Assembly (NCBI RefSeq): GCF_963921235.1
Contig: NC_086097.1
Span: 124,994,001 to 125,058,000, forward strand
Direction: 5' to 3'
Length of the DNA stretch: 64,000 nt
From: Mobula hypostoma
Taxonomy: Eukaryota
Below the pieces are notes generated by a model that ran no database searches, was not told the DNA's origin, and worked only from the letters and a program-made list of their open reading frames with translations. Each line of letters starts with the position of its first letter. Position 1 is the stretch's first letter. The position numbers and the translations under genes are program-made. Shown here piece by piece: positions 23,356-40,599 of this stretch.

Positions 23356-25104
23356 AAAGGGATCATTTTGTTGTGGTTTTTGTTCCTGGTTACACTAGTT
23401 TGCAACTGGTAATACCACATTCAAGGATCAGTTGTTTTTTTCCCAAAAGCAGCAGAATAATACCTCCTTAGATCAAGGATCAAGGGTCGACTTTATTTGC
23501 CATATACATTTACTGCATATCTTTTAGGAAGCTGGCATGACATGCAACTAAGAACTGTATTTAGCAATTATAAAGACTTTAAAAATTATGTAAAAAAATA
23601 AAGTTAGGGGAATATGGATGGATATGGAATAAAATGTGCATAAATACATAAATATCAGCATAAATTTACAATGTAAACATCATTATAAAATGTGGTTTAA
23701 AGTGTTTACAGTACAGTGACTGATGTAATAGATAGAGGGGGTGAGGGGCTATCTAGAATGGTTGATCAGATTTACTGCCTGGGGGAAGAAACTTTTAAGA
23801 TGGTATGAAGTTTTTGTTTTAAAAGCCCTATGGTGCTTTCCAGAAGGAAGCTTTGTAAAGGTAATTTTGCAGGATAGGTTAGTGTTCGCAATAATTCTTC
23901 CTGTCCATTTCTCCGTCCTAGACACGTACATTTCTTGCAGTGATGGCAGACTGCAGTCAGTGACCTGTTCTGTTGATCTGACAGTTTGTGTGAAGTTTTT
24001 GTTTTAATAGCCCTATAGCGCTTTCCAGAAGGGAGTGTTTGGAAAAGGCAGTTTGTGGAGTGGGTTGTAATTTTAATCGAATTGTAATTGATTCAAGTGG
24101 AGAACCCTTCATTGTCTCCAGGAGTTTGAGGACAGCTAGAATCAAGTATACTTTCAAATATAATAATGATTCAGTCCCACTGTAAAGCTATATTGTGTAT
24201 TTCAGATCATGTTGCACTTACAGGGATGGGTTGAGAACACCCAGTTGGGCTAAGGTCCAGGTATAATCAAAACTTCCATTTGATTAATAACATCTGCAAA
24301 CATTGCCAATTTCTCTCTGCTATGATAAGGTGTATTCATAAGACCTATCCCTCTCAGAGAAATGGTATCCTTGTTGCATTGGTAGTTATTTATAACAAGC
24401 ATGAGAACTGCTATTAATGTTCAGGAACTGTTATTATCCTTCAACCATCAGGCTCCTGAATCAATGTGGATAACTTCATTCACCTTAACACACTGTACAC
24501 AACCCATGAACTCACTTTCCCAAAGACTCCACAACTCATTTTCTCAGTATTTATTAATTCATTATCCAATCAGATATTTATTTATCAATTTATGTATTTA
24601 TTTTGTATTTGCACAATTTGTCTTCTTTTGGACATTAGTTGTTTGTCAGTCTTTGTGTGTAGTTTTTCATTGATTCTATTGTGCTTCTTTGTTCCACTGT
24701 GAATGCCTGCAAGAAAATAAATCTAAAGGTAGTATATAGTGACATATATGTACGTACTTTGAAAATAAATTTACTTTGAAATTTGAAGTTTGAACTTTAA
24801 TATCATTTTGTCATTAGCATTTCAAATTCATCAACTATAGCTCTGCTTGTGAGCCCCTTGAGGTAGCAGACTGAGAATAAGCCTTCAGAATTTTTTAAAA
24901 TTATGTTTCATTTGCTCTAGAGTTTTACTCAATCACCAGTGGGTAGACTGAACATCTACTGTCTATTAATATGGGAGAAACTATTCTCCACACCACCTTG
25001 CAATTTCAATGGTGGAAAAATTCTCTCTTATATAGGCAGCAGTACTTTCACTAGCCCTCTCAGCTTACTGAAAACCATCTGACAATATTAATGACACCAG
25101 GAGA

Positions 25105-35198: not shown

Positions 35199-36670
35199 TA
35201 TTTACCCTTCTTGTTTTCTCTTCACTGTTTTAATGGAGGTCGGGATTGAGGACGTGATTTTAAGTTTAACTCTGTTTGGTTTCAAGTTAGCCCATTGCTT
35301 TGCTTTGCTTTTAGTTAGTTGCACGGTGGGTTTTTTTTTGGGGGTTTTTTTTTTTCTTTTTTTCCATTGATATATATAAAATCTAGTATACTATTATGTT
35401 ATCTTGGTTTCTTATGCTTAAATTACATTGTTTGTAGTATTTTCTTTTTGGTATTGTTATCTTTTGGAATTTTATTATACTTTAACATTGTATTAATGTT
35501 TATATGGCTTACCTTTTTTGTATACTTACTCAATAAAAAGATTTAAAGAGAGGGAGGTCGAAGGCTTAATGTCTGCATGCCCGAGCCAAATCTGAGTCTG
35601 GTGGATGAAGAAGGTGACCTGTCTTTAGGTTAGAGGACTGTGTATGTGAGTGGGTGGGTGGGAGGGAGGAACGGGACCTGTTTTGCTGTTGTTTTGTTGT
35701 TGGTTGTGTTACTGTTTTGGTGTGTTCTGTGTTGTTTTGCTGAGCATTGTGGGCAGGCTATCTTGGCACCGTAATGCGTGGTGACACTTGTGGCTGTGTT
35801 GGTTGCTCAAGCAAACAACGCATTTCACTATATGTTTCAATATACACGTGATAAGTAAACGTGAATCTTGATCATATAGAGAAATTGTGTTACAGTACTG
35901 TTTGCATCAGTGGAGACACAAAAGGCTGCAGATACTGCAATCTGGAGCAACGAGCAATCGCTGGAAGAACTGAACAGGCCGAGCAGCATCTCTGGGGGAA
36001 AGGACATTGTTGATGTTTTGTGTTGGAACCAACTGCATTGAGTTCTGAATGCAGGGCTTTGGCCTAAATTATCAAATATTTCTTAGATGTTGCTCAAAAT
36101 CTTGAGTTCCTTCATCAGATTACTTGCTGCTATCTGTATTGGATTTTTTTTTTGCCATAGTATTGGGCCTGACTGTGTAGTAGCCTTTGTATCTCTAGCT
36201 CTTGGTTTAAGATTTAACCAGGGACTTGAACATGTACTGTGTAGATGTATAGTGGAGAATATACTGACTGGTCACAGCCTGACATAGAAACATCAATGCC
36301 CTTGAAAGGAAAATCCCACAAAGTAGTGGATACAGTCCAGACCATCACAGTAAAGCCGTCCCCACCACTGAGTACAACTACATGGAGTGTTATCATAGGA
36401 AAGCTGCATCCATCATCAGGGACTCCCACCACCAGGCCATGCTCTCTTCTCACTTCTGCCATCAGGAAGACGGTACAGGGGCCTCAGGACTCACACCACC
36501 AAGTTCAGGAACAGTTATTACCCCTCAACCATCAGGCTTTTGAACCAAAGGGGATAACTTCACTCAACTTCACTTGCCCCATCACTGAATTGTTCCCACA
36601 ACACATGGACTCTCTATCAAGGACTCTGCATCTCACGTTCTCAATATTTATTGCTTATGTATTAACACCT

Positions 36671-36901
36671 GGTGTCAAGATGGTTGTTGTGATGCGGCTA
36701 GTGCGGTAGTGTAGTGGGTAATGCTTGTCACTCTCACTTTCAGCTTCCACTGCTGGCTAGCAGTCTCGTGAAAAGGAGAGCCGAGTGTGTAATTCTCTCC
36801 CTGCCTGTACATAACCTCTCCAGCAGCAAGCCTCATGTAGTGCCTCCTCACTGGCGACACAGAGAAACTGAACTCCTTTCAGACAGGCTGAACTACAGAG
36901 G
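36671..36901 (+). ncRNA. Candidate (probably degenerate) HDV-like ribozyme at the 5' end of a non-coding repeat (about 36671-37290)
   Basis: P2 tgtagt/actaca, P3 gcc/ggc, L3 tcctcact, P4 ctgaa/ttcag, J4/2 with C36888, and P1 ggtgtc(36671)/gacaca(36856). Confidence 0.5.
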
Positions 36902-38217
36902 ATGGGGAGGAATTCTGACCCCTGCACACATAGCACACAGGCCCAGCACACTACCCTGGTGCTCGTGAACCAGATCCCCAACCATGGGGAAATAGCTCCA
37001 CTGCCTATGGGCAGCCTCGGGAGAGAAAAAGGCTATGGGAATAAACCCAGACAGCAAATCTGGAGTAGAACCCCTAAGGAGGCTGGATGTCATTGAACAT
37101 CCTTCCAGCAGCTCCTGCAGCCAAGCTGGTGCCAAACGTATTGCTTCATCAGCTTTCCTTTGGACTACACTGGTGAGTCTGGGTGGTGGATCTTGACGAC
37201 TGGGCATCTCAGGATCTCCATACCTTCTGCCCAGGCTTGTGATGATGATCATCATCACCCATTACCTTTCAAGACAGATGGATGCCTCCAACACATTGTT
37301 ACTACCTTTTTCTTCTGTATTTGCACACGTTGTTGTCTTTTGCACGTGGCTGAACGCCCGACTTGGTGTGGTCTTTCATTGATGCTATTATGGATTTATT
37401 AGCTATGCCCACAATAAAATGAGTCTCAGGGTTGTATTTGGTGACATATATGTACTTTGATAATAAATTTATTTTGAACTTTGATGTTTTCTAAGTTGAA
37501 ATTTCAATGCAATGAGGTACAATGTTGAAGATGCTGTTTCCCAGATGAGATGTGATCTTGCCTAGTCTCTGATAGGTGAGAAAAGAGTTAGTTGAAGAAG
37601 AGCAGAGTTCACTTGTGCCCTGACCAATACTTACACTCCAATTAGCATCACTAAAGCTGATTGTGGGCATGCTACGTTGAAACCAGAATGAGTGACAATA
37701 CTTTCAGGCTGCTCCCCAGCGCACCCTCTGGTGTGTTAGTTCTTAACGCAAACTACGCTTCCACTGTACAGTTCAATGTACACGTGTTCAGCTGAAATAC
37801 ACGAAGCCTTTCATGTCAGTAATCAACCTAAAAGTCCATTATGTTGATTCTTGGGAGATCAACATGTGAAGAATTATTGAGCCAGTAGGAGTGGTTTTAC
37901 CAAAGGATGTAAGATACTGCAAGGGATTGACATGGAAGAGGCCAAGAGAATGTCTCGCCTGTTGTAGAACTCTAGAACTGTGGGATATAGTTTTAAAAAT
38001 AAGGAATTTTGTATTTAAAACCAACATATAGAGGAGTTTCTTCTCTGAGGGGGTGGTGAATTTTTGGAATTCTCCTGTCCACGGAGTTGTGAAGACTGTC
38101 ATTGGATATATTCAAATTGGAGACTGGTTGTCATTTGAACGTTTTCCGTGCTGGAGCAGGTTGAAGGGGGTGAGTGACCGACTCCTGACCCTGTTATGAT
38201 CTCATATTTCATACAGA

Positions 38218-38781: not shown

Positions 38782-40599
38782 GTTTCAAAATAAGGAATTT
38801 TGTATTTAAGATCAAAGTGTGGAGGAATTTCTTCTGTCAGAGGGCAGTGAATTTTTGGAATTCTCTTTTCCACAGTGTTGTGAATGCTGTGTCACCAGAT
38901 ATATTCTTTTTGGAGACTGGTTGTCATTTGAACGTTTTGAATACTGGAGCAGGCTGAAGGGGGTGAGTGACCTACCCCTGCCCCCGTTTGTTACCTTCTC
39001 CTGTTTGGTATATACACTCCGTGGTGACTTGGTTAGGTATGTCCGTGGTCTCCTGCTGCTGTGGTCCATCCATTGCAAGGTATGATGTGTTGTGCATCCG
39101 GAGGTGCTCTTCTGCACACCACTGTCGTAAGGCATGGTTATTTGAGTTACTGTCGCCCCCTCTGGGATGGTACGCTACTAAAATAATTGAGGGAGTGCTT
39201 CACCCAACCTGACCCCTCCCCCTGTAGGACGCTATATTGTGGTCCTTCCCGGAGAAGAGTTTACAACGTTATGAGAAGCATAGATTGGCTAGATTGTCAG
39301 AGCCTTGTTCCCATTGTGGAAATATCAAATACAAGAGTGCAGAGCTTTACATTGAGAGGGGGAAAGTTGAGAGGAGATTTACACAGCAAGTTACACAGCC
39401 AGGGAAAAGCAGGGAATTTAATGGTGGAAGCAGATACAATCACAACATTTAAGAGGCCTCAGACGGAAAAACGAACAGGATATAGACCGTCTCAGACAGA
39501 TGCACTTATCTTACTTAACCATCATGGTCGGCACAGATCCCCTGGGCCAAAGGGCATTTTCCTGTGCTGTGCTGTTCTACATTCTGTGAAATGAAAATCA
39601 AGAACTGCAGATGCCGGAAATCTGAGTTACAAACAGAAAATGTTGGAAGCAGTTTGTAGGCAAGGCGGCATCAGTGAATCAGTGAGAGGCAGTTAATGTT
39701 TAAGTGTGGGGCCCTTTGTCAAGACTGGTCAGAGGTCAGTGGGTGGAGCAAACAAGCTATCTCTGATTGGGTGAATGGTTACTGGGGTAGGTACAAGCAA
39801 TTTAAACTCCAAGAATCAAGATTGTTTATAGTCATTCTTCAGTACGTGAGTGTAAAGGAGAATGAAATGATTGTTATTCTGGACCCAATGCAGCATAAAA
39901 ATGCACAACAAGTGTAAAAAGCACATTAAGTATAAATTTACCAGCAAAACTATAAAGCAAAATGTTCAAGTCGCTTTGAGTATAGGTAGATAAATACAGA
40001 GACACTGAATCAGAATCAGTTTTGATATTACTGACATATGTCGTGACATTTGTTATTTTGTGGCAGCAGTACATAAAAATATTATAAGTTACAATAATAA
40101 ATATATACTAAAAATTAAATTAAATAAGTGGCGCAAGAGAAGAGCAAAACGAGTGAGATAGGGTCTATAGGTTGGTTCATTGTCCGTTAAGAAATCTGAT
40201 GGTGAAGAAACTGTTGCTAAAACTGAGTCTGTTTTCAGGCCCCTGTACCTCCTTCCTGATAGTCGGAATAAGAAACAAGCAAGTCCAGGGTGATGGGGGT
40301 TCTTAATGATAGATGCCGCCTTTTTGAGGCATTGCCTTTTGAAGATACCCTGACAGGAGATGATACAGTGACAGTGACTCTTGGGAAGAGGAACTCTTCC
40401 AGGTAGAGCAGGGCACATGAAAGCACAGTCAGACAGTGACTATGTCAGTACAGGTAGGAGACGTGGAGTGTAAGTGTAAGCTGGCGGTGGAGAGTATGCA
40501 ACGTGCTTTTATCAGCAAGGTTGTGGGACTAAGCCAGCAGACTAACCTAGCTACTGTGAATAGAATAAGGAAAGCTAAGCCATAGTAATAACAGGCATC

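Follow-up and report, generated by a model that had tools for sequence, protein, structure and literature searches.

A decayed HDV-like ribozyme fold at the front of a non-coding RTE-derived element in Mobula hypostoma

The element at 36671 and its insertion site

The window analysed here is a 64-kb stretch of the Mobula hypostoma genome, and the features of the locus described below all lie on its forward (+) strand. Family alignment delimits a whole non-autonomous, RTE-derived element of a young subfamily from 36671 to about 37286-37289. Its first part (36671-36901) carries an HDV-like ribozyme fold that is decayed in this copy. It is followed by the remaining 5' untranslated leader of the parent RTE (36902-37241), which is shared with parent copies, by a palindromic hairpin at the internal-deletion junction (37239-37258), which is diagnostic of the young subfamily, and by the parent's 3' terminus with a remnant microsatellite tail (37259-37289). 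An earlier note on this DNA had described (gat)n near the end of the element; these letters turned out to be half of the junction hairpin, and the true tail is (CAAC)n. The element is flanked by a probable 7-bp target duplication (left copy 36664-36670, ending in the T at -1; right copy 37290-37296), and the two copies match at 6/7 positions.

The host repeat at this site consists of the frameshifted end of a LINE ORF together with 3' UTR (36228-36663), and its 3' UTR resumes past the insert (37297-37489). Another copy of the host repeat in the same window (24419-24791) crosses the insertion site without the insert, and contigs from public runs joined about 36657 directly to about 37310. The earlier note had placed the insertion in a Rex1 tail. 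The uninterrupted copy upheld the insertion into the tail of another repeat; the name comes from a resemblance of the frameshifted translation to the end of a Rex1 ORF, by which the host repeat may be Rex1-like, and Pfam gave no match for two ORF pieces. The window also holds two young repeat pairs with 92-94% identity (41516-42074/63332-63891 and 20077-20408/42073-42465).

A 271-nt query gave 1794 first-look family candidates in the 3.5-Gb genome, and the 40 of them that were scored showed 85-89% identity, self excepted. The shared start lay at 36669-36674 in 23 of 29 fetched loci, and the shared end mostly at 37286-37299, for a length of ~630 nt. Exact-pattern counts scaled by sample frequency, each built on 1-5 matches only, gave copy numbers of 1,160, 1,475 and 2,301, which puts the family at roughly 1,000-2,500 dispersed copies. 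The element at 36671 differs from the family majority by 8.3% over its first 580 nt (5.4% outside CpG), and the median divergence of 30 copies was 8.3% (6.5% outside CpG). The copies have a (CAAC)n tail of variable length, target duplications of varied length and frequent 5' truncations. These are the marks of target-primed reverse transcription, and the element is a non-LTR element. No long ORF was found in it. The dispersed family, the LINE-type marks and this lack of a long ORF bore out the proposal of a non-autonomous element of ~600 bp that has no ORF.

The parent RTE and its relatives

Searches with the 3' end of the element alone recovered short copies and no parent. The route to the parent led from a 67%-identical sister element in locus L125 to family B (L183), and from there through further families to the family named RTE-A. 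Five RTE-A copies (L265, L270, L271, L277 and L281) match the element from nt 8 or before to nt 582 at 80-88% and then continue beyond it. Three of them (L265, L277 and L281) also terminate in its last ~30 nt, mostly with a (CAT)n tail. All RTE-A copies seen are broken. L281 aligns to amino acids 20-1016 of the 1048-aa single open frame of family B at 41-62%. Pieces of family B matched an AP-endonuclease family (E 6e-5, under the cut-off) and RVT_1 (E 1e-33) in Pfam, and L183 is a full-length family B copy with endonuclease, reverse transcriptase and a C-terminal Cys/His motif. What looks like a single young LINE family with 1264-aa frames, taken from a genome search with RVT_1, was rejected as parent (0/30 loci matched the element).

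The first 582 and last ~30 nt of the element recur in decayed full-length LINEs of RTE type, and it is therefore an internal-deletion derivative that joins ~580 nt from the start of such a LINE to ~30 nt from its end. The autonomous partner that the earlier note proposed to search for was thus found as a full-length LINE sharing both ends with the element, in decayed copies. RTE elements have a single ORF with AP endonuclease and reverse transcriptase, and a short 3' end with tandem repeats. The parent and its sisters fit this architecture. Most homologs of the sister endonuclease that have a name are called 'craniofacial development protein 2-like' and are presumably of RTE origin. The placement of the parent in the RTE clade rests on this architecture and on the names of the homologs. 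The tails differ, being (CAT)n in the RTE-A parent, (CAAC)n in the young element and (CAC)n in family B; the protein donor for the young subfamily may have been RTE-A or the better preserved family B.

The length of ~630 nt and the frequent TG at the left edge could also be read as a solo LTR, or as a SINE with a small-RNA head. This is hardly credible, since tails and duplications vary in length, 5' truncation is common, the T at -1 is often part of the target duplication and the head is common to a full-length LINE; the ends shared with a LINE-type parent refute it.

Several other observations were made in these loci. L061-L090 contain a young LINE family with many near-identical reverse transcriptase domains; its open frames reach about 1264-1317 aa, and it was probably active recently. 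Downstream of the RTE in L183 (6559-9490), open-frame pieces resemble gag and integrase of an LTR-type element. The truncated-copy pairs L097/L098 and L109/L110 have near-identical flanks and lie 13-42 kb apart, which suggests local duplications.

The ribozyme fold in this copy, the family and its sisters

In the copy at 36671-36901 the parts follow each other in the HDV order P1-J1/2-P2-P3-L3-P3'-P1'-P1.1-P4-J4/2-P2', and all parts that had been proposed for this site were present at their positions. The 5' strand of P1 (36671-36676) begins with G36671, which is the first base of the element and the predicted cleavage site. J1/2 (36677-36830, 154 nt) is a predicted multi-hairpin domain (z -1.8 for the majority sequence, a weak value), closed by a predicted P1.2-like helix (36683-36689 with 36821-36827). 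The 5' strand of P2 (36831-36841, A36835 bulged) pairs with 36892-36901 in 10/10 positions. P3-L3-P3' (36842-36855), P1' with the P1.1 site (36856-36864) and P4 (36868-36885) come next. The last segment (36886-36901) contains J4/2 with the predicted catalytic C36888 and then the 3' strand of P2 (36892-36901); its CTGA, with the catalytic C and the A before P2', is present in this copy.

The defects of the copy became clear by comparison with the family. L3 had been described as one base off HDV. The difference is real, but the changed base is A36850 at the G25 position, where the family has G, which adds to the defects of this copy. At 36862 and 36863 the copy has G and A in place of the family C and G, and with A36850 and A36863 the U20.G25 pair and P1.1 both fail; the missing GG of P1.1 is thus a defect of this copy, as had been said, since the family majority has GG. 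The P4 sequence ctgaa-ctcct-ttcag is present at 36868-36882, but it is a decayed form, 2 bases short of the family form, which has these bases after 36883. The G.A at the cleavage-site pair, in contrast, had been wrongly counted among the defects of this copy, because it is common to the whole young subfamily. In agreement with the earlier note, the copy is likely inactive, as predicted from the changes at G25, P1' and P1.1, that is, from the loss of G25, of one P1.1 G and of a base in P1. The family letters at 36850, 36862 and 36863 and the two extra P4 bases were also present in four public runs, which carry four organism labels.

An Rfam scan of this decayed copy returned 8 matches at E<=10, none of them to a ribozyme family. 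A fold descriptor, written after the sequence had been seen, was then used in a strict form (P1.1 GG needed) and a relaxed form (without GG). The strict form had 0 matches in the window. The relaxed form matched this site and 40020-40223, and the second match was discarded as A/T-rich and unrelated. In ten shuffled windows there were 7 relaxed cores altogether, between 0 and 2 per window (~0.7 per shuffled 64-kb strand). The copy alone is therefore weak evidence, because it has no Rfam match and relaxed matches are as frequent in shuffled windows.

Of 103 unique copies, the 27 that had been selected by the core pattern were set aside, and the fold was counted in the other 76. P3 was complete in 58/76, P2 had at least 9/10 pairs in 51/76, and J4/2 was CTGA in 63/76. 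The P1.1 site read GG in 46/76, which restores P1.1 in the family consensus, and AG in 18/76, as expected from CpG decay. The commonest L3 has G25 (28/76 exact, 17 more with G to A). P1.1 and the U20.G25 pair are thus both found in the family majority. The whole set of core features was intact in 8/76 copies, 5 of them with G25. The majority sequence matched the strict descriptor; among 1000 dinucleotide shuffles of it, 0 matched the strict form and 1 the relaxed form. Minimum free energy folding of the whole head, in which pseudoknots were not modelled, was uninformative (z 0.45).

Differences within the family are decay after insertion and show no selection; the covariation that one decaying family cannot offer comes from its sister families. 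Family B starts with GGTTCC and has GGAACT after P3 in 25/27 parsed copies (30 examined), and family C starts with GGTTCC and has GGAGCT after P3 in 7/8 (9 examined). Family E starts with GGTAGTG and has CACTACT opposite in 26/29 (30 examined). Families B, C and E keep C-T-G-A immediately before the strand pairing with P2. The sequence of P2 differs among families A, B and D with pairing kept, and it changes in step between B and D. Compensatory changes in P1 and P2 between families are thus observed, as read from motif tables with no statistic attached. These results indicate that the HDV-like fold is real at the level of the family, not from this copy alone.

The HDV likeness could in principle have arisen by chance in a structured LINE leader, given the post hoc descriptor, the silent Rfam scan and the rate of relaxed matches in shuffled strands and once elsewhere in the window. 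We consider this very improbable, since no shuffle of the majority reached the strict form and P1 sits at the very start of the element in three families that begin with different bases; position and pairing across families largely refute it.

Family A has the canonical form, whereas families B-D have an extra hairpin in L3 and no P4. The heads of families B, C and D (L153-L183, L215-L222 and L186-L212) are HDV-like: a G.U pair closes a P1 of 6 bp, the hairpin inside L3 covaries, and P1.1 has, as in CPEB3, only one G, which precedes a T. Family E (L232, L234, L278 and L289-L318; 1251 candidates) has a compact, irregular HDV-like head in which the first heptamer is duplicated; J1/2 is at most one base long, P2 contains a G.G mismatch, and the first G faces A in one register.

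5' ends, the cleavage-site pair and the likely life cycle

In 88 copies chosen on 3' features, 31 started at nt 1-3 and 45 at nt 1-15, 15 started at nt 16-290, 19 at nt 291-360 and 9 later. The predicted clustering of 5' ends at the ggtgtc start was thus found, at the predicted G1. The 19 copies form a second truncation cluster (nt 296-360 of the family majority, about 36960-37025 in the window). A multi-hairpin domain of ordinary folding energy (z -0.7) is predicted immediately 5' of this cluster, at nt 236-320, and may cause reverse transcriptase to stall at this point. Bases at -2 and further upstream showed no conservation. T stood at -1 in 86 of 100 listed exact starts, under a pattern that excludes A, and in 15/25 without that exclusion. 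The duplication ended at -1 in 8 of 13 copies in which one was found, so the T at -1 is often derived from the target. HDV cleavage is described as fastest with U at -1 (PMC1874588).

The start differs between subfamilies. Copies with the old junction start with GTGTGTC in 8/14, which gives a perfect 7-bp P1 with G1-C; among old copies chosen by the junction alone and having a 5' end, GTGTGTC was found in 6/10 and GGTGTC in 1/10. The parent copy L271 also starts with GTGTGTC and has a perfect 7-bp P1. Young copies start with GGTGTC in 30/54 and with GTGTGTC in 1/54, and 13 copies were unclassified. The association of start with subfamily had a Fisher p of 1e-6 on 8:1 versus 1:30; three of the loci counted had been selected for their start. 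GTGTGTC as the start of the whole family was rejected on exact counts of 125 versus 4, from patterns that require four bases after GTC and so leave out the old subfamily, where three A are usual at this place. P1' is unchanged between the subfamilies, so the young source lost one P1 base. Even the ancestral cleavage-site pair is G-C and differs from the G.U of HDV. The P1 pair is restored in the older subfamily and in one parent copy, whereas the young subfamily, this copy included, lacks it.

Two registers are open to the young P1, one of 5 bp with G1 against A and one of 6 bp in which an A is bulged. Nearest-neighbour energies favoured the first, with -6.2 kcal/mol for the young P1 with G1 open (5 pairs) and -4.3 with G1-C and the bulged A, against -9.1 for the ancestral 7 bp. 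Changes of the G1:U37 pair of HDV are described to lower activity (PMC1874588), and P1 mismatches have been linked to loss of in vitro activity (PMC3774820); R2 ribozymes with a 4-nt P1 or with P1 mismatches are also described (PMC3774820). For the young subfamily, either cleavage occurred at a non-canonical site or the start was set in another way. We suggest only tentatively that this abundant subfamily was amplified with a non-canonical HDV ribozyme that was still cleaving, with G1 facing A as an open G.A or next to a bulged A. It is rather unlikely that the ribozyme was real in the parent RTE and the old subfamily and is a relic in the young one, whose 5' end would be set by a promoter inside the element, along the lines proposed for Pr77 of L1Tc, or by a stop of reverse transcriptase. 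This fits the absence of the cleavage-site pair in the most stable register of the young P1, the young preference for GGTGTC (30/54 against 1), the irregular core seen also in family E, and the description of promoter and ribozyme within the same 77 nt (PMC3383444, PMC3185411). Against a relic, the young majority has kept P2, P3, the L3 G25, the GG and the catalytic C, the 5' ends of young copies are no less sharp than those of old copies and lie on a G, and R2 ribozymes with a short or mismatched P1 are described, as noted above.

A 7-bp helix between leader and 3' end (37202-37209 with 37280-37286) is possible in family A and the parent. It is weak, as 29 and 22 of 500 shuffles were as good, and no such pairing was found in chosen segments of families B, D and E; single parent copies gave z from -2.2 to +1.4.

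The dispersed family, its insertion marks, the ends shared with the parent, the majority fold and the 5' ends at G1 are established. On this ground, the element at 36671 is best read as a decayed copy of a non-coding RTE-derived element, the front of which, an HDV-like ribozyme by its fold on paper, probably freed the RNA at the first G. A source copy would be transcribed by read-through from an upstream host promoter, and the RNA would cleave itself before G1 and be freed from the read-through transcript. RTE protein supplied in trans would bind its 3' end, and copying would take place by target-primed reverse transcription. The young subfamily would have continued with a P1 one base shorter than that of its ancestor, probably less efficiently.

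This arrangement is already known from RTE ribozymes, bipartite RTEs and R2 SIDEs, as far as they are described in PMC3774820, PMC3414825, PMC5786205 and PMC4908430. RTE ribozymes were reported by Ruminski 2011, as cited in PMC3774820 and PMC5786205. Bipartite LINEs in which the RTE ORF is absent include RTESINE1/2, WALLSI3, MAR4_MD and Bov-A, and a 5' ribozyme was suggested as the reason why they keep the extreme 5' end (PMC5786205). Like them, the present element retains nothing of an RTE but its 5' and 3' parts, still begins at the extreme 5' end of the parent and has a microsatellite tail; unlike them as described there, its fold is mapped base by base and it has a new palindromic hairpin at the junction. 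It shares with drz-Agam-2-1 (PMC4908430) the P1 at the 5' end, the long J1/2 closed by P1.2, the double-pseudoknot order and an extended P2 (10 pairs here, 12 there). It differs from that ribozyme in that the old form has G1-C and not G.U, the young P1 is one base short and the linkers have 6 and 3 nt, and its fold is a predicted one. The structured J1/2 domain of drz-Agam-2-1 speeds cleavage (PMC4908430). R2 SIDE ribozymes of Drosophila have been shown to cleave (PMC3414825). Like R2 SIDEs and NARTc/L1Tc, the element has an internal deletion and keeps a 5' HDV-like ribozyme and the 3' end of its parent; unlike them, it is not site-specific, belongs to RTE and not to the R2 or Ingi clade, and has a thousand or more dispersed copies. 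We found no literature on this family or on an HDV-like RTE ribozyme in cartilaginous fish in a search of papers, and the family may already have a name in Repbase.

In conclusion, a dispersed RTE family in an animal with a large genome is now known to carry a canonical HDV-like fold, and both its parent and the derivative are available for comparison. The old and young subfamilies, which differ by one base in the cleavage-site helix, form a natural experiment. This contrast bears on the tolerance of HDV-like active sites for an unpaired G1, and on whether the ribozyme is necessary to a non-autonomous LINE derivative. The core is kept in about 5-8 of the 76 sampled copies, so that some could still cut host transcripts. 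If the young ribozyme does cleave in its non-canonical form, the T at -1, the base preferred by HDV, would make intact full-length copies ready-made transcript cutters scattered over the genome.
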